Below, in pieces: positions 608 to 9,034 of a stretch of 40,212 bases of DNA. The translations under genes were made by a program, and so were the position numbers. The first letter of the stretch is position 1. The number at the start of each line of letters is the position of its first letter. The notes beneath the pieces are model-generated. The model was not told the origin of the DNA, ran no database searches, and saw only the letters and a program-made list of their open reading frames with translations. Source of the DNA: a virus (taxonomy: Duplodnaviria > Heunggongvirae > Uroviricota > Caudoviricetes); the IMG/VR virus record IMGVR_UViG_2541047498_000018. One strand, 5' to 3'.

Positions 608-1345
608 TCATTCACTCTCTTTCAAACCAGTTTTAACTGTTTGTGGTTTTGGGTAAGGCTGGACTTTGAATAGCTTTGTGTTGAGGCGTTTTCTGGCCCT
701 CTTGTTCAGAAACCGGATGTAACGAAACTGTCGGAACTTATGAACACTGGCTCTGTCAATATTAGCCCTCAGATGTTCACCTCGTTGTCCGCCTCGTTTA
801 ATGGCATTCCTGCAAATCTCGTGATACCACTCGCCATCAAGTTCATAGAATATTGATTCATGGCTGCCTACATAATCAAAATTGCTTGCCTGATACACGA
901 CACCAAGACAGCCACAACGCTCATCTGCAAACGACTGAACCCACTGTACCTGCGGATAAAGCTGCCTGATTAGCTTGAGCGCGTAACTGATTGCCCTTGA
1001 TTCGGAGTTTCTCGGCATACAGTCATGCAGCCATAGCCGGTTAAGCTCCATATATTCTCGGTTCTGCGTACCCGTTACGACGCGTGCACCACTGTTTGGG
1101 TTAAGGGCGTAACCCCATTGCATTACGCCAACAAGTTCCCGTTCTGAAAATATGCCCAGATGAAGGTAGGAGTTATTTACGAAACGGTGGCTGTAATGTT
1201 TATTGACGATGACCAGTCTGGCCAGCCAGCAACTTATTGTCTCAACCCGCAACTCACGGGAGCCATAACCAACGATATTGTCGTTATAGCGAATAAGTTC
1301 AGGCGTGCTGATGATTCGGGATGTGACTTGCTTTCTGTTCCCCAC
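608..1345 (-). CDS. mom: DNA modification protein Mom (adenine modification, antirestriction)
   Basis: 245-aa ORF as the last gene before the prophage end. Its 5' end overlaps the 3' end of the upstream Com-like zinc-finger gene, as in Mu. True start may be an internal codon. Confidence 0.8.
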
Positions 1346-1499
1346 GACAGGATTTCCTTGTGTATGTGGGGTGCTCTGTGGCGCTCGGAGATGTGATTTG
1401 ATTGAGGGTTTTACAGCGCGGACATTTTACTTCCAGATAACTGAAACTGGCCCGTGCCAGTAGCTTATTGCAGTGTCGGCACCGTATGTTTCGATACAT
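1299..1499 (-). CDS. com: Com, zinc-finger translational activator of mom
   Basis: Translation [14 protein letters not shown]...EVKCPRCK has the C4 zinc-finger pattern of Mu Com. ATG at 1499 is preceded by AGGAGG 9 nt upstream on the minus strand. The track ORF starts further upstream at a TTG at 1544. Confidence 0.85.
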
Positions 1500-1546
1500 G
1501 ACCGCATAACCTCCTGCTTTGTTGTTGATGCCTTTCTCATGCAATC

Positions 1547-2726: not shown

Positions 2727-4766
2727 TTATTCTGTTACCGCTTTTTTCACTTCCACCACAATGCTGTCAATCAGCACCGGGTAAGTTGCATTTTTTGTGA
2801 TATCCGTTACGCGGAGTTTGTCCACCGGGAAAGTTCCTACTGGTGACTGCGTCAGGGTAAACGCGGCACCATCCTGACCATCAATAACCGGAATAACCTG
2901 AAGGCTGTTATTTCCTGCAAAACGGAAGGCCAGCGTATGCCATTCATTATCAAATGCACCAAAGGTTCCCAGTTTCTGGTTATTTGTTGCCACTTTTGCA
3001 TTGTGGTACATCACATTCAGGTCTTTTGCGTCTGTCTGGATGTAGAACGATGCCAGCAGATTATTCCCTGCATCCCCTGTCAGGGTGACACCCTGCGGCA
3101 GAGAGGAAACCGGCCAGTAAAGCCCCATGACATACTGGTTTGCCACCAGGTCGCCAGGTACTTTAAAACGACAACTGATTAAACCACCATTTTTCAGCAG
3201 TTCAGCACCAGTACCGGCATCATGATCCAGATACCAAGATGATTTACCTGTTTCCTTGGTCAGTTTCATTGCCTTACCACCTGTGCCTCCTGCATCACTG
3301 ATAATTTCAGCTTTACCGCCAGCCGGCTCCCAGCCCTGGGCTTTCAGATTTCCTTCTGACTCACTGACACGATAAGACAGCAGTGTTGTGGTTACTGCTT
3401 CAGTTTCTGAAGGTGACGGCACTGGTGCTTCAGTTTCAGAAGATGGAACATCGGCTTTTACTGTGGTTCGCCCCGCATGAGTCAGAACTGCCGTGGCCAG
3501 ACGGTCGGAAATAATCCCACGACGTGCCCATGAACTGAAATGGCTGGCCCGGTCCGCAGATGTCCAGGTGGCGGCACTGTTACGCCACGTTGAGCCGTAA
3601 TAACCAATGGATTCAATATCCGGGTCTTCTGCCGGATTGTTGGTGGGTACATTCGCGTCATTTTCATCTGTCATTAATGGAACGAAATGAATGTTTTTAT
3701 CTGTTTTGTTTTTGTAGCCGCCATAGATTGCCTGGTATGCCGGTTCATTTTTCTGTTTCCAGAAATACGTGGTATCGCCACAAATCCACGGAACGCCAGC
3801 AGCACTGCCACCGGTACACTGTTCCGCCTGTTCAGCCAGGTCTGCGCGGAATTTTTCCACCATCGCCAGAAACAGCGCGGAATGCTCCGTCGGCTTCGCA
3901 TCAATATCAAACTCGCCCTGCATCCACACCACAGCAAGCAGGCGGTTTTTCGGGTTCTTCGCCAGTGCCGCTTTTGTCCGGCTGATTAAGTCCTTATACA
4001 GCGGCTTATCCACACCCCAGCGGGCTGAGTCCTCTGAAGCACCCGTGCTGTCACTGTACGTGCCGTCAGCACCCGCCGTGAATGCAGAACCACCACGGCA
4101 GCAGGGAACCAGCAGAATCCCCGCATCTGCCGGAATAAACGGCAGCAGTTTTTTGGCAATGTGAAGCCCCTGACCCACGGTGCCATATTGCCCTTTAGCC
4201 ACATCCGCTTTCGGGTGATTTTTTCCACTCATATCCTGCACATCATGCAGACAGTGGTCGGCCAGAATGATGTCGTTATACTGACAGGCTTTACCTCCCG
4301 GCGTGACTGTACTGCGACGGGCTAACTGCATAATACGCGGTTCGGGGCGGTCATATGTCTCCGGCAGTGGCAGACCTTCACCGTAAGCCATACCGTTTGA
4401 CTGACCAGCAAGAACCACCACGTAATACCAGGAAGGGGAGCTGGAAGCAGTTTCATTTCCTGACGGACGGGTATGTGTTTCAGCATTATCCCAGTCTGAC
4501 GGTTCAGCAGTACCGGCAACATCAGCACTTAACGGAATGACCGCACCAATACCCGCTCCGGTAATTTCCACACTCGGATCACCGGATACTGGCCTTACCC
4601 ACAGGCAATCCCGTGTATTAAAACTGATGAGACAGTCAGCAAATGTCATTCCTCCTTTTGTTTCGGCCGGAGGAAAGGGAGCCTCAAGAAATGCCGCTGT
4701 ACCACCGGAAACTTTAACAGTAAAGTTTCCGGGCATTGATGATAGTTGAACCCATTTGGACGTCAT
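2727..4766 (-). CDS. SASA/SGNH-family carbohydrate O-acetylesterase (NanS-p-like sialate O-acetylesterase) with C-terminal lectin-like domain
   Basis: 679-aa ORF with VVVLAGQSNGMAYGEG (the GQSN nucleophile motif of SASA esterases), a Ser/Thr/Pro/Glu-rich linker (SETEAPVPSPSETEA) and a roughly 250-aa C-terminal domain. This three-part layout matches prophage NanS-p esterases as recalled. Confidence 0.75.
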   Translation of the reverse strand: MTSKWVQLSSMPGNFTVKVSGGTAAFLEAPFPPAETKGGMTFADCLISFNTRDCLWVRPVSGDPSVEITGAGIGAVIPLSADVAGTAEPSDWDNAETHTRPSGNETASSSPSWYYVVVLAGQSNGMAYGEGLPLPETYDRPEPRIMQLARRSTVTPGGKACQYNDIILADHCLHDVQDMSGKNHPKADVAKGQYGTVGQGLHIAKKLLPFIPADAGILLVPCCRGGSAFTAGADGTYSDSTGASEDSARWGVDKPLYKDLISRTKAALAKNPKNRLLAVVWMQGEFDIDAKPTEHSALFLAMVEKFRADLAEQAEQCTGGSAAGVPWICGDTTYFWKQKNEPAYQAIYGGYKNKTDKNIHFVPLMTDENDANVPTNNPAEDPDIESIGYYGSTWRNSAATWTSADRASHFSSWARRGIISDRLATAVLTHAGRTTVKADVPSSETEAPVPSPSETEAVTTTLLSYRVSESEGNLKAQGWEPAGGKAEIISDAGGTGGKAMKLTKETGKSSWYLDHDAGTGAELLKNGGLISCRFKVPGDLVANQYVMGLYWPVSSLPQGVTLTGDAGNNLLASFYIQTDAKDLNVMYHNAKVATNNQKLGTFGAFDNEWHTLAFRFAGNNSLQVIPVIDGQDGAAFTLTQSPVGTFPVDKLRVTDITKNATYPVLIDSIVVEVKKAVTE

Positions 4767-4865
4767 AATAATCAGCCTGTTCCTGAATAAACTGAATTAT
4801 CATATCCACAGACCGATAAACGCCATTTTGCGTTAATTCAGTAAAGGCCCAACAAAGGGAGCGTC

Positions 4866-5426
4866 TTATTTTTCCGAAACGCTCGCAGGATAATAACGAT
4901 AAAGGGTTGAAAGGCCGATATCAAAAATAAGTGCCACCTGTCTTCGACTGACACCCCCGGCCAGTAAACGCCCGACCTGCTCGTATTGTTCCTGCGTGAG
5001 ACGACGGGGTCTGCCGCCGGTTCGTCCCCTTTCACGGGCAGCTGCAAGACCAGCCCGTGTCCGTTCGACAATTAATTCACGCTCCATTTCTGCCAGCGCA
5101 CCCATTATGTGAAAAAAGAAGCGCCCCATGGGGGTTGACGTATCAATGTTGTCAGTAAGACTACGAAAATTTATCCCCTGTTGCTGTAATTCATCTGTCA
5201 GCGCAACAAGGTGGCGCATACTGCGCCCCAGCCTGTCCAGTTTCCAGACCATCAGTGTGTCACCGGGTTTTAGTTTCTTCAGTGCCCGCTTCAGTCCCGG
5301 CCGCTGTGTCGTTTTACCACTCATTTTATCTTCAAAAATCTGCTCACATCCTGCACATTCCAGCGCATTTCTTTGTAAACCTGTGTTCTGGTCATTTGTT
5401 GATACGCGTATATAGCCAATCAGCAT
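4866..5426 (-). CDS. gin: Gin serine DNA invertase (Hin/Gin/Cin/Pin resolvase-invertase family)
   Basis: 186 aa starting MLIGYIRVSTNDQ (catalytic Ser) with the conserved DRLGRS and GRFFFH...ALAEMERE motifs and a C-terminal HTH. It lies next to a gix-like site and the invertible segment. Confidence 0.95.
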   Translation of the reverse strand: MLIGYIRVSTNDQNTGLQRNALECAGCEQIFEDKMSGKTTQRPGLKRALKKLKPGDTLMVWKLDRLGRSMRHLVALTDELQQQGINFRSLTDNIDTSTPMGRFFFHIMGALAEMERELIVERTRAGLAAARERGRTGGRPRRLTQEQYEQVGRLLAGGVSRRQVALIFDIGLSTLYRYYPASVSEK

Positions 5427-5480
5427 GTATTTACCTTCCTTAAAAAGAGGTGGAAAGGCCTTTTAAAGCAGATATACGGC

Positions 5481-5506
5481 ATCCCTGAAACCTCGGTTTA
5501 CGGGAT
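5481..5506. other. gix-like recombination site (left border of invertible segment)
   Basis: 26-bp imperfect palindrome ATCCCTGAAACC-TC-GGTTTACGGGAT, 55 bp upstream of the gin start. It resembles the Mu gix/hix family sequence as recalled. Confidence 0.7.
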
Positions 5507-5851
5507 ACTGTAAACAGGGCCGCGAATGCCCTGCCATCGAACGGAGCGGCTGTTGCAGCGAATAAACTCGCCACTCCAAGAAATATTAATGGTGTCCCAT
5601 TTGACGGAACGCAGGATATAAATATTACATCGGGGATGACGCAGTCTGTGGCTGACTCACGTTATGTTCAAAGCATTCGAAGAGGTTCAAGGTCAACGAT
5701 TGGAATGCAATATAATATTTTTGAGGTTCCTGACGGATGCGTACTTACAGGGCTTGATGTCGCTGGTGATGGTAATGCAACGGTAACCGCATATTATCGA
5801 CCTGTTCAGTTTCTGATAGATGGTTCGTGGAAAACAGCTTCCAGCGCATAA
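5501..5851 (+). CDS. Start-less alternative tail-fibre variable C-terminal cassette (S'v-like), expressed only after inversion
   Basis: Open frame directly inside the left gix site on the plus strand. It is homologous to the C-terminal part of S and has no start codon of its own upstream (TGA at 5486 in frame). Confidence 0.7.
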   Translation, partial: RDTVNRAANALPSNGAAVAANKLATPRNINGVPFDGTQDINITSGMTQSVADSRYVQSIRRGSRSTIGMQYNIFEVPDGCVLTGLDVAGDGNATVTAYYRPVQFLIDGSWKTASSA

Positions 5852-5930
5852 AAGTGCAGTAGTTCAAAAAACAGATTATCTGAATAAATATATGATGATT
5901 TTGTCTTTTCAACAAAAACAAGGTGAAATA

Positions 5931-6452
5931 ATGGAGCTTATTAACGTAAAACGATATTACCCGGAACACAAACCCTATGGTGAGGATGTTCAGTATTTCC
6001 AGAGTGAGGACGGAAGGGATTTTTATGAATCTATCCCGCTTTTCACAAAGAAATACAAACTCTGTATTTCGCCTGTAACGGGTATTATCTGCTCTGTTGC
6101 TGAAGATGTCTCTGCTTTATATCCGGCAGGTTTTACTGTTGTTGAAGTGGACGAACTGCCGGAAGGTGTGAATATTGACGGTAACTGGCAGTTTTCTGAT
6201 GGCCTGATATCAAAGGTGCCGGTAAACTGGAAGACGGTTGCTGAAAAGCGCCGCTCATCGCTGCTCCAGGAAGCCAACGAAACTGTGGATGACTGGAAAA
6301 CGGAATTAAAACTGGACATGATTAGCGATGAAAATAAATTACAGCTGACGCGCTGGATGGCGTATATCCGACAGCTTAAAGAAATGCACTTTAATGATAT
6401 TGCCAGTGAGGGGCATTACCAGGCGATTCCCTGGCCGGAAAAACCGGAATAA
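5931..6452 (+). CDS. Tail fibre assembly protein (U'/Tfa family)
   Basis: ATG at 5931 preceded by AAGGTGA. Contains SEDGRDFY near the N-terminus and a W.AY...L...I.WPE.P C-terminus typical of Tfa/U proteins. Co-oriented with the S'v cassette. Confidence 0.8.
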   Translation: MELINVKRYYPEHKPYGEDVQYFQSEDGRDFYESIPLFTKKYKLCISPVTGIICSVAEDVSALYPAGFTVVEVDELPEGVNIDGNWQFSDGLISKVPVNWKTVAEKRRSSLLQEANETVDDWKTELKLDMISDENKLQLTRWMAYIRQLKEMHFNDIASEGHYQAIPWPEKPE

Positions 6453-6486
6453 TTCAGAGGGTGCATTCAGCACCCTTTTCTGTGGT

Positions 6487-7398
6487 TTACACTGAACTTA
6501 CCGTTCTCCAGGCATTATTAATATAAATCTGAACCGGGCGATAATAGACCCCACCGATATTGTCCGCAGACCGGGAGCCGGTTTCCTGCACGTTAATTCC
6601 GGAAAGCATACAACCGGAAGGTGCGCTGTAATTCCATGACATTTCATTGCCTCCGGGTGAATGATAGCTCTGTGCTCCAAGCTGAACATTCTGTACATAC
6701 CGGCCATCTGCGGTTGACTGCGTCATTCCTGACGTGATGTTGATATCCAGCGTTCCGTCAAAAGGAACACCATTAATATTTCTTGGGGTGGCGAGTCTGT
6801 TTGCTGCCACGGCGGTTCCACCCGATGGCAGGGCATCAGCAGCCTTATTTACCGTTTCCCGTAAACCAACGTTATCGATAAAAGCGCCTTTATCCGGAAT
6901 GTCTGCGCCGTTCTGCTCCCTGCGCAGGTAACGGTTATCACCTTCGCTTTTGCTGTAAACATCCAGATTATTACGGGCGGTTCCCGCATTCTCCAGGTCG
7001 GCAAGGTTCTGATCCTTCGCCAGAGCATTAACGTCACCGGGACCAAGACTGTTTTTTGTGGCAAGCGCCCCAAGACCAAGATAACCACGGGCAAGACGCT
7101 GGGCTTCCGCACCGGCATCAGCAATTTCTTTCAGGTTGTTTTTCCGGGAAAAGGCATTCGCAGCGATAATGGCTTTAATGGACAGCGTAAGCTGGTTTAA
7201 CTGCGCCTTATCCGGCTGAATACTGGCTTCAGCCAGAATATTCAGCAGTTCGGCCTGGAGAATATTCAGCCAGTCCTGACCAATCCAGCTGATACCTTTT
7301 TGTCCGTCACCTTCGGTAAACCAGGTGGTGGTATTACTCTGCGCCGGTGCCAGCGCAGGCATATTCGCCACGCCGGAATTATTATCAACATGAAACAT
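6487..7398 (-). CDS. S: Tail fibre protein S (constant N-terminal part plus currently fused variable C-terminal part Sv)
   Basis: Likely start is the ATG at 7398 (MFHVDNN...), which overlaps the stop of the upstream gene as TAATG. The gene crosses the right gix site, and its C-terminal roughly 125 aa lie inside the invertible segment. Confidence 0.8.
   Translation of the reverse strand: MFHVDNNSGVANMPALAPAQSNTTTWFTEGDGQKGISWIGQDWLNILQAELLNILAEASIQPDKAQLNQLTLSIKAIIAANAFSRKNNLKEIADAGAEAQRLARGYLGLGALATKNSLGPGDVNALAKDQNLADLENAGTARNNLDVYSKSEGDNRYLRREQNGADIPDKGAFIDNVGLRETVNKAADALPSGGTAVAANRLATPRNINGVPFDGTLDINITSGMTQSTADGRYVQNVQLGAQSYHSPGGNEMSWNYSAPSGCMLSGINVQETGSRSADNIGGVYYRPVQIYINNAWRTVSSV
6856..6881. 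other. gix-like recombination site (right border of invertible segment, inside S)
   Basis: TTCCCGTAAACCAACGTTATCGATAA, about 21 of 26 positions matching the Mu gix sequence as recalled, in inverted orientation to the left site. It encodes IDNVGLRE within S. Confidence 0.65.
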
Positions 7399-7958
7399 TA
7401 AATAGTCTCCTCTTCGTGACTGTTTGCATATACGTAAATAAACGTCTGCCATGCAGGCTTATAACGGTTCAGAATACATTCCAGCGCACCGCCTTCATAA
7501 ATACGCAGCGGCGTGAGAATATCATCCAGCACATTCATATTCCGGTAGCCGGTTTCACTGTTAATCGTGACAATACTGACCCACTGTGAATCCGGTGATG
7601 GCTGAATATCTATTTCATAACCAAACTCTGCCGCAAACCGGATATAAAATTCACGGTTAAGAGAGGGTTTCATCCGGTATTTATTCCCGGCATAACGCTG
7701 ACGCTCCTGAATGGTTGCGCCGGTCATATCACATTCCGGTAACCCCAGATAACGCTCCCAGTCTTCCAGCAGCAGACGGGATGAATCAGGAAAACGTTCT
7801 GCCAGCATCTGGTTACCGGTCCAGGAAACACGCTCCGTGGAATGACTGAGGCCCAGGCACAAAGCCGCAAGAACGGATGACGGCCGCTTATCCCATGCCA
7901 GCCCGTCAGGCAGCAACTGCAACAGGGCACGCTGATGCGGGGTCAGGGTTACAGCCAT
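7398..7958 (-). CDS. Baseplate/tail protein (Mu gp48-like, DUF2313 family)
   Basis: 186-aa ORF immediately upstream of S and downstream of the baseplate J-like gene, at the Mu gp48 position and size. Confidence 0.6.
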   Translation of the reverse strand: MAVTLTPHQRALLQLLPDGLAWDKRPSSVLAALCLGLSHSTERVSWTGNQMLAERFPDSSRLLLEDWERYLGLPECDMTGATIQERQRYAGNKYRMKPSLNREFYIRFAAEFGYEIDIQPSPDSQWVSIVTINSETGYRNMNVLDDILTPLRIYEGGALECILNRYKPAWQTFIYVYANSHEEETI

Positions 7959-9034
7959 GTGATTTCCCCCACGGTCAGCAACTCTGTATCTCCGGCCATC
8001 ACGGACTTCAGCGGGCTGCGAACTTCAAAATCCTCCAGTCCTTTCACCCCTGCAACAGCCCGCCAGAATGATGAAGGCAATACAAGTCCACCCGGCCGCG
8101 ATTCGTTATAAAGCAGGTCCGTTAATGCCTGTTTTACGGCAGCCTGATTTTCCGGCGTTTTGGGTACAATCCTGATCTCAAACGCCACCGGCTTATTGGT
8201 CAGCTTAAACACGCTGATTGTCGGCCCAAGTGGCTGACCAACGGGCTGGCCCGTCGCCGGATCATCATGACTGCGGATATAATCCGCCACCCGCTTCACA
8301 TCACCTTCTCCGGGGAAAATGTCAGGGTTATTATCCTGAACAAAAGTCACACCAACACTACCCGCCTCAGGCCATTCAGGCTTACACCATGCCCGCGTCA
8401 CGCCCGGTACTTCCCGTGCCCAGCGTTCAAAATCATACTGTGTTCCCCCTGATGGCGGGTTCTGTACCCGGAATACCAGCCTGGACAGCAACTCCGGCAC
8501 CGTTTCCACATCCGCACCACCGGTGAGTCCCGTGCCGGTGACCGTGGCTGTCTGGTTGATGCCCGCCTGTGGCGTGATAAAGGACAGGCGGGTTCCGGTC
8601 GGGGTATTTCCAGCGCGCCCCGCACTTTCCGCCTCCACATTAACATTCAGTGTTCCGGCTTTTCCGGTCGCAGAGCCGGTGATGCGGTACACAACACCAT
8701 CGCTTCGCTGAAGGAGTACGCCTTCCGTGATCCCTGCATCCGTGGTCAGCATCAGTTGTACCGGTCCGTCAGCGCGGGAAGCCGGTTTACGGATGACACC
8801 CCAGAATGCGCAGTGTTTCAGGAGTTCGGCTTCATCAGCTTCTGTCGGAATTATCTGCCGGGAGATCCAGGCCAGATGTTCATGCTCCTGTGCTGACAGA
8901 CCCGCCAGTGCATACGCAATGGCATTCAGGGTGGTTTCATTCACGCCCGGCTGCGAACCGGGCAGGCGCTGGCTGATATCCTGTTGTGTCTGTGTGATCA
9001 GTTGCGCCAGTGGTAAGGGCTGATAAGGCATCAT
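7949..9034 (-). CDS. Baseplate J-like protein (Mu gp47-like)
   Basis: 361-aa ORF in the baseplate block, with the size and position of Mu gp47 / P2 gpJ-family proteins. Confidence 0.7.
   Translation of the reverse strand: MMPYQPLPLAQLITQTQQDISQRLPGSQPGVNETTLNAIAYALAGLSAQEHEHLAWISRQIIPTEADEAELLKHCAFWGVIRKPASRADGPVQLMLTTDAGITEGVLLQRSDGVVYRITGSATGKAGTLNVNVEAESAGRAGNTPTGTRLSFITPQAGINQTATVTGTGLTGGADVETVPELLSRLVFRVQNPPSGGTQYDFERWAREVPGVTRAWCKPEWPEAGSVGVTFVQDNNPDIFPGEGDVKRVADYIRSHDDPATGQPVGQPLGPTISVFKLTNKPVAFEIRIVPKTPENQAAVKQALTDLLYNESRPGGLVLPSSFWRAVAGVKGLEDFEVRSPLKSVMAGDTELLTVGEITWL

Follow-up and report, generated by a model that had tools for sequence, protein, structure and literature searches.

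Textbooks illustrate programmed host-range switching in phages with invertible tail-fibre cassettes, and their examples have one chaperone gene per alternative fibre tip, as with U and U' in the G segment of phage Mu and tfaP and tfaE in the P segment of the Escherichia coli K-12 element e14. In the published crossover-site pairs of the Din family of invertases, the two central bases are identical in every pair (PMC3241671). Here, we describe a related switch in a 40,212-nucleotide stretch of tailed-phage DNA (IMG/VR record IMGVR_UViG_2541047498_000018; the whole stretch is called the window below), in which two tips share a segment with a single tail-fibre assembly gene (tfa) and the two crossover cores differ. 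The element is of the type of Sp18 in E. coli O157:H7 Sakai, whose invertible host-specificity region was reported in 2009 and scored as 'atypical' (PMC2669165), so the element is less novel than an earlier note on this DNA had implied; the polymorphism of the core dinucleotide and the mismatch in the window are a new finding. No discussion of the single tfa or of core alleles was found in the searchable literature, nor anything relevant on single-tfa invertible cassettes and the pinB B segment. We consider it likely that a Mu-like prophage of the Sp18 type uses this region, built around a single Tfa, to switch its host range, and that the window holds a copy locked in a productive orientation.

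Two inverted 26-bp sites bracket the segment, their centres 1375 bp apart. The left site (5481-5506) reads ATCCCTGAAACC TC GGTTTACGGGAT and the right site (6856-6881) TTCCCGTAAACC AA CGTTATCGATAA, or TTATCGATAACG TT GGTTTACGGGAA as its reverse complement. Aligned with gix as taken from the Mu genome (TTATCCAAAACC TC GGTTTACAGGAA), a check that the earlier note had proposed, they agree at 19 and 21 of 26 positions, respectively, and both match the dix consensus and fit the 12-2-12 table of Din-family sites (hix, gix, cix, pix and bix; PMC3241671). The claim of two inverted gix-like sites around some 1.4 kb is thus upheld. The right site lies inside the fibre gene S (codons …IDNVGLRE…), at the codons homologous to those of Mu gixL (…NVGLRETV… versus …NLGLQETV… in Mu). 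The sites form the outer ends of an inverted repeat of 182 nt, with arms at 5489-5670 and 6692-6873 that are 78% complementary, and no other inverted repeat within 4000-8500 exceeds 22 nt.

The fibre gene is divided by the right site as expected for such a switch, with its constant 5' part outside the segment and the alternative 3' parts inside. S (6487-7398, minus strand) encodes a tail fibre of 303 aa, of which the constant N-terminal part Sc (6882-7398, minus strand) is 46% identical to Mu S aa 1-191 and matches PDB 5yvq_A and 8ju3_A. In the window, it is fused to Sv (6487-6855, minus strand), the expressed 'trans' or orphan tip of type t1, which is convergent with tfa. The silent, promoterless 'cis' tip S'v of type c1 (5507-5851, plus strand) is in frame across its site (…GLRDTV…). 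The peptide …LATPRNINGVPFDGT(Q/L)DINITSGMTQS… is encoded in each arm, on opposite strands, and both arms continue the S frame; the tips are identical at 69 of 122 positions overall and show little similarity in their last ~60 aa, which agrees with the earlier description of a shared peptide block followed by diverging ends. Both are homologous to the C-terminal domain of Mu S (aa 435-504 in PDB 5yvq_A), the part crystallised with the assembly protein U: S aa 229-302, in Sv, match Mu S aa 435-503, and S'v aa 49-114 match aa 436-504 (E=1.4e-6). These matches bear out the view of a G-like fibre segment with two alternative tips. Sv is also 48% identical to P2-type gpH C-termini. Across the family, we distinguished four cis-tip types, ending in …TASSA, …TVSQL (two versions) and …SAASI, and at least two trans-tip types.

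Adjoining the segment, and transcribed away from it in the direction of the tail operon, is a Gin/Pin-family serine DNA invertase of 186 aa (4866-5426, minus strand). It carries the Pfam domains Resolvase (PF00239, E=1.4e-51) and HTH_7 (PF02796, E=1.7e-14), is identical to Mu Gin at 136 of 181 positions (75%) and has the conserved serine in its N-terminus, MLIGYIRVSTNDQ. The gene is intact, and the Gin homologue looks functional by its length, domains and similarity. Annotated genomes of both orientations encode the invertase WP_000904930.1, and the window differs from four copies in its own orientation at a single position (7405), outside the invertase gene. Over its first 120 nt, the gene shares 78-82% identity with gin, and one match to the Fis consensus (nt 71-85) is present in both.

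The segment occurs in both orientations in vivo, as seen at the population level. We call the orientation of the window A and the inverted one B, built in silico, and searched 5,426 complete E. coli genomes for each. Orientation A was found in 182 and B in 23 complete genomes, with a best B match of 99.9% identity, in agreement with the claim that the segment is invertible. In annotated B loci, Sc is joined to S'v in a protein of 295 aa (WP_032213164.1) that is followed by a co-oriented tfa, and the other tip is left as a promoterless fragment. Copies in opposite orientations coexist in two genomes (H36/H55 and H46/H282), and one divergent variant is also represented in both (L013 and L014). 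Exact matches to the two fusion proteins lie on 1000 contigs or more for S-Sv and on 153 for S-S'v. In the inverted loci, the switch of partners maps to at most 13 nt, core included, bounded by the outer half-site and by position 12 of the inner one. Such an exchange point within the 26-bp sites favours site-specific over homologous recombination. In one inverted locus (L025, strain 2014C-3050, TT/TT cores), the silent Sv copy is annotated as frameshifted, which could reflect decay of an unexpressed tip or an assembly error.

The cores of the two sites differ in the window. Read in the TTATC… orientation, the left core (5493-5494) is TC and the right one (6868-6869, AA on the plus strand) is TT, corresponding to GA and AA in the canonical TTCC.. 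orientation. Identical cores are present in relatives, as TC/TC (L001, L002, L018-L024 and others) or as TT/TT (Sakai and L025). Scoring the alleles by matching junction-specific 50-mers against the E. coli genomes, we found TT at the right site in 87 A and 2 B genomes, and TC in 81 A genomes plus uncounted B genomes among the near-exact matches. At the left site, TT was present in 24 A and 2 B genomes and TC in at least 89 genomes. A third left allele, TTC, arises from a 1-nt insertion and was seen in strains E2865 and 6535WT, both TTC/TT, and strain 13E0780 has TT at the left and TC at the right site. The number of pure TC/TT genomes as obtained by subtraction (87 with right TT minus 24 with left TT, 63) was dropped because this third allele exists. 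Counted directly, the mismatched pair of the window is present in 27 genomes (H1-H27; 9 of 60 evenly spaced rows), and about 27 further genomes with a match longer by 1 nt are estimated from 8 of 60 such rows, the two inspected being TTC/TT. Apart from the core, the sequences that carry these variants agree at 99% or more, and in most cases at 99.9% or more. All genomes seen with the mismatched pair of the window or the TTC allele are in orientation A. Conversely, the 13 inverted loci inspected all have matched cores (12 TC/TC and 1 TT/TT), and B genomes with TT at either site have it at both. This hot spot of polymorphism may be a footprint of invertase-mediated 'localized conversion'.

In the Hin system, a core mismatch of this kind blocks ligation in the inverted configuration (PMC4817059, PMC1904230). 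By the same logic, the 2-nt overhangs GA and AA would be unable to pair after the 180-degree exchange, so that flipping out of the captured orientation should be blocked or very slow; we infer that the window copy is locked, or strongly slowed, in A. The earlier note had considered a prophage frozen in a non-productive orientation. The frozen state is supported for the window copy, through the core mismatch and not through a defect of gin; the non-productive part is contradicted by the selection on the tip, the prevalence of A and the spread of the genotype. Comparison of the orphan tip's distal part with that of three relatives gave non-synonymous over synonymous divergence (dN/dS) values of 0.09/0.83, 0.05/0.75 and 0.04/0.43 (ratios of about 0.11, 0.07 and 0.09), which points to strong purifying selection, and Sv is the tip switched on in 182 of the 205 complete genomes (~89%). 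The window genotype recurs, with 1-2 differences over 13 kb, in O121 WL1277, OkiPb01685, strain 113 and O157:H7 F1273. These four genomes and the window represent five different chromosomal insertion sites, and Sakai a sixth: beside ynaI, in an ABC-transporter gene, beside a fimbrial operon, in gsiA, the window's own site and, in Sakai, sorM. For a transposing phage, the same genotype at different sites implies recent independent lysogenisations by particles with genome and fibres in orientation A. Efficient packaging has been reported for Sp18 DNA, and the Sp18 prophage is predicted to be intact (PMC2669165). We infer that particles in orientation A are infective and that A is productive, not a dead end.

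The only assembly gene of the cassette, tfa (5931-6452, plus strand, 173 aa), is co-oriented with the silent tip. Its product matches Pfam Caudo_TAP (PF02413, E=1.9e-18, 67 bits against a cut-off of 22) and Mu U (PDB 5yvq_B, E=2.3e-15), and this membership, together with its position beside a fibre gene with a predicted Tfa-binding C-terminal domain, identifies it as a putative fibre chaperone. A tblastn search of all six frames of the 40-kb window, with its own Tfa and both assembly proteins of Mu (U and U') as queries, revealed no second tfa. The minus-strand open reading frames over 5745-6473, among which an assembly gene might have been missed, are 41-98 aa long and lie almost entirely antisense to tfa, and the stop codons of tfa and Sv, 34 bp apart, have no remnant of a second tfa between them. 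The claim of a single assembly gene co-oriented with the silent tip is confirmed, as is that of a captured orientation in which S is fused to Sv, convergent with tfa, and has no co-oriented assembly gene.

The same layout (invertase, silent tip, one tfa and convergent S) is present in divergent relatives (L007/L008, L013 in A, L014 in B, L016, L023 and L024), also where the Tfa is only 60-72% identical, which indicates that it is a conserved design of the family and not an accident of the window copy. An AT-rich spacer of 79 nt (5852-5930, plus strand) separates the S'v stop from the tfa start. Such spacers measure 51-79 nt in invertible members, compared with 14-17 nt in non-invertible relatives and 2 nt in Mu. 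A terminator-like hairpin (6456-6478, plus strand) lies between the convergent tfa and Sv stops and is kept in relatives with another stem (GGGTGC/GCACCC versus AGAAGGCC/GGCCTTCT). It has a good T-run on the plus strand only, so late transcripts should end after tfa in the inverted orientation. In the captured orientation, late transcripts could pass the hairpin by read-through into the invertase gene and the SASA/DUF6645 gene beyond it, and expression of the genes downstream of the segment may depend on its orientation.

Two variants of the family bear on the tfa module. Compared with the window, the Tfa of L007/L008 is a mosaic, identical over the N-terminal 72 aa and 52% identical over the C-terminal ~100 aa, with both tips almost unchanged; in the same genome pair, dS is 0.43 for the orphan tip and 0.04 for the cis tip. 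The modules are exchanged independently of one another. L015 (GCA_043620225.1, 3190-4935), represented by one contig only, lacks the invertase and the cis tip and is thereby a natural fixed version of orientation A. Its tfa is still intact and convergent with S, and the ~300 nt in front of this gene are unrelated in sequence. A search for a promoter of its tfa gave a single 9/12 match, 140 nt upstream, which is no more than chance would produce.

In the mechanism that we propose, the Gin/Pin-family invertase would recombine the two inverted 26-bp sites, one of them inside S, so that the 1375-bp cassette flips and the constant 177-aa N-terminal part of S is joined to one of two tips of ~120 aa, both homologous to the Tfa-bound domain of Mu S. 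The single Tfa is arranged as an operon with the cis tip, and in the captured state S-Sv would be on and tfa antisense to late transcription. That the two orientations arise instead by general homologous recombination at the 182-nt inverted repeat, without action of the invertase at the 26-bp sites, is extremely improbable: the repeat is indeed present, but its arms are only 78% identical, the partner switch in all inverted loci is confined to at most 13 nt including the core, an intact Gin homologue adjoins the segment and mutations are concentrated exactly on the crossover dinucleotide. We also regard it as very unlikely that the captured orientation is a non-productive dead end, with defective S-Sv fibres and an Sv that is the decaying remnant of a former Sv-U cassette. 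The S-Sv transcription unit does lack a tfa and the window copy is apparently unable to flip back, yet dN/dS in Sv is about 0.07-0.11 over dS values of 0.4-0.8, Sv is the expressed tip in most complete genomes with the segment, the locked genotype has reached five distinct insertion sites with 0-2 SNPs over 13 kb and the space between the stop codons holds no trace of a second tfa. Some points weigh against the proposed locked switch itself. The genome counts are phylogenetically non-independent, with many clonal O157:H7 strains among them, and sampling could partly explain why none of the 23 inverted genomes showed mismatched cores. The predicted lock draws on the biochemistry of the related enzymes Hin and Gin, and a second, correctly spaced Fis site for an enhancer was not established in the 5' part of the invertase gene.

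How the orphan tip is assembled is a separate question, and the switch with a productive A orientation is compatible with more than one answer. We tentatively favour, while stopping short of calling it probable, a single Tfa acting on both tips, given that the Tfa N-domain, which binds the fibre, and the motif at the C-terminus of the tips are kept throughout the family; a shared Tfa would have to be made independently of orientation. The N-domain is 74-100% conserved across all tip types, and in Mu, as a summary of the work of North et al. (2019) has it, this domain attaches to the distal part of the fibre and remains on the virion (PMC9608196). Both tips have the Mu S domain to which Tfa binds, and the longer AT-rich spacer before tfa in invertible members is a further point in favour. 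In the non-invertible relatives L009 and L010, a t1-like tip is followed directly by tfa, the N-domain of L009 Tfa being 74% identical to that of the window; tfa likewise follows the P2-type gpH tips that resemble the orphan tip, and L015 kept its tfa after loss of the invertase and the cis tip. Against a shared Tfa stand the late transcription running antisense through tfa in A, which disfavours efficient Tfa synthesis and favours a Tfa-independent orphan tip, and the failure of a sigma-70 scan of 5300-7500, spacer and S'v included, to find a promoter-like site upstream of tfa, the number of sites in this interval being at chance level. As to a Mu-type late promoter, alignment of Mu Pmom with the region upstream of the window com gave no usable motif. 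Moreover, the Tfa N-domain co-varies with the cis tip and not with the orphan tip, and orphan tip t1 occurs with Tfa N-domains of 100% and 78% identity. The same observations, along with the conservation of the single-tfa layout in divergent relatives and the status of A as the commonest, transmissible state, lend substance to the possibility, a real one though less than probable, that Sv folds and trimerises without Tfa, which would serve only S'v; the switch would then toggle between a fibre made without a chaperone and one that depends on Tfa and may remain capped by it. It is at odds with an orphan tip that shares the domain of Mu S crystallised with its Tfa, with the tfa genes behind close tips in non-invertible relatives and P2-type phages, and with the intact tfa of L015, convergent with S. 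Shiga-toxin-producing E. coli (STEC) genomes contain many lambdoid and P2-like prophages with tfa genes, and tblastn found related Tfa proteins, 39-53% identical, in phages Rac-SA53 and 186, so Tfa for the orphan tip might be supplied in trans by other prophages of the same host. We think this improbable, as it would tie the fitness of the phage to the other prophages of its host, the family is also present in non-O157 strains with smaller genomes (for example the 4.9-Mb OkiPb01685), and the foreign Tfa N-domains are far more divergent than the resident one. Some weight is left to other explanations.

A more speculative and rather doubtful extension is that phages of the Sp18 type lose their ability to switch and become fixed in host range by mutation of the 2-bp core (GA to AA or the 1-nt insertion), possibly as by-products of cleavage and religation by the invertase, the spreading locked form being the one whose tip has no co-transcribed chaperone. 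This would imply either a Tfa-independent member of the Mu S and P2 H tip family or one Tfa shared by two tips and made in either orientation; we found neither described for invertible fibre cassettes in the searchable literature.

As to its genomic setting, the window is a nearly complete Mu-like prophage of the Sp18 type from Shiga-toxin E. coli. Its switch region (4800-7500) is matched at up to 100% identity by prophages of complete E. coli genomes, mostly from Shiga-toxin-producing strains, and the gene order is that of Sp18 in O157:H7 Sakai. The tail operon runs on the minus strand through baseplate J (7949-9034), a homologue of Mu gp48/YmfQ (7398-7958), whose stop overlaps the S start, S and the invertase. 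Directly downstream of the invertase, a gene on the same strand (2727-4766) encodes a SASA/DUF6645 protein of 679 aa, the SASA domain of which is sialate O-acetylesterase-like; this protein may be a second, enzymatic receptor-binding protein. At the same position, the non-invertible relatives L009, L010 and L017 have a second long tail fibre and a DUF4376 chaperone. Com- and Mom-like genes lie at the prophage end (608-1544, minus strand), as in Mu, and are annotated likewise in near-identical copies; between them and the SASA gene are a plus-strand open reading frame of 154 aa (1614-2078) and small DUF826/DUF1378 genes. The prophage ends near position 480, and its right end begins TATAGCGCGGCG. 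Base 7405, just upstream of the S start and inside the end of the gp48/YmfQ-like gene, is the sole difference between the window and 27 otherwise identical switch regions in complete genomes. A search of the phage database found no characterised phage with the cassette, only two Mu-like insertions in Shiga-toxin (Stx) phages, 94% identical.

Mu-like prophages of this kind are common and mobile in Shiga-toxin E. coli, insert at random and can disrupt host genes. A family with two tips and one chaperone is a natural test of whether one Tfa can serve two tips and whether a tip of the Mu S / P2 H type can fold without Tfa, and both questions are relevant to the engineering of phage host range. Owing to the segregating core alleles, sequenced STEC strains already contain the prophage in locked and switchable forms that are otherwise identical, so that the core-matching rule in vivo and the fitness of switching versus locking could be tested without strain construction.

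Compared with known systems, the Sp18-type cassette is a Gin/Pin-type fibre switch by mechanism and membership. Every family-level feature of such a switch that could be tested was found in it, except for one tfa per tip, and identical cores are missing in the window copy. The order baseplate J, gp48, S with its sites and invertible segment, invertase and, further on, com/mom is that of Mu, the invertase is close to Gin, the site lies at homologous S codons, and tips and Tfa are homologous to Mu S and U. The contrast with the 3-kb G segment that the earlier note had drawn is also well founded: the segment measures 3.0 kb in Mu and 1.4 kb here, with tips of ~330 and ~120 aa, respectively; Mu has two assembly genes (Sv-U and U'-S'v) where the window has one, a 2-nt instead of a 79-nt gap before the assembly gene, com instead of the SASA/DUF6645 gene after the invertase, and GA at both cores instead of GA and AA. 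The P segment of e14, with its invertase PinE, is similarly compact (1.9 kb), lies downstream of the YmfQ gene, has short fibre genes and adjoins pin, but its two tfa genes, tfaP and tfaE, are convergent, one per tip. Each tip in Mu and e14 has its own co-oriented assembly gene, which is not so in the Sp18-type cassette; the single tfa is a real architectural difference from both and makes the element a variant. The non-invertible Mu-like prophages of E. coli and Salmonella (L009, L010 and L017) share the baseplate module and the Com/Mom genes at the end, have neither invertase nor second tip and carry tfa directly after the fibre gene, with a gap of 14-17 nt; the fibre tip of L009 and L010 is like the orphan tip of the window, whereas that of L017 ends differently. 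Sp18 of Sakai, which belongs to the same element family, has the identical gene order (fibre ECs_4989, tfa ECs_4990, fragment ECs_4991 and invertase ECs_4992) and differs in its matched TT/TT cores and its location in sorM, the window having TC/TT and another insertion site. Finally, among core-site mutants of Hin/hix, Cin/cix and SfMu, one-base changes in or beside one core are known to block or reduce inversion, as with pRJ862 and pKNOT for Hin (PMC4817059, PMC1904230); in SfMu, where such an effect was suspected, a 1-bp change beside the central bases goes together with a lack of host-range switching (PMC4406740). Unlike those core mutants, the Sp18-type variants are natural alleles that segregate in a prophage population, with an effect on inversion that is predicted by analogy.

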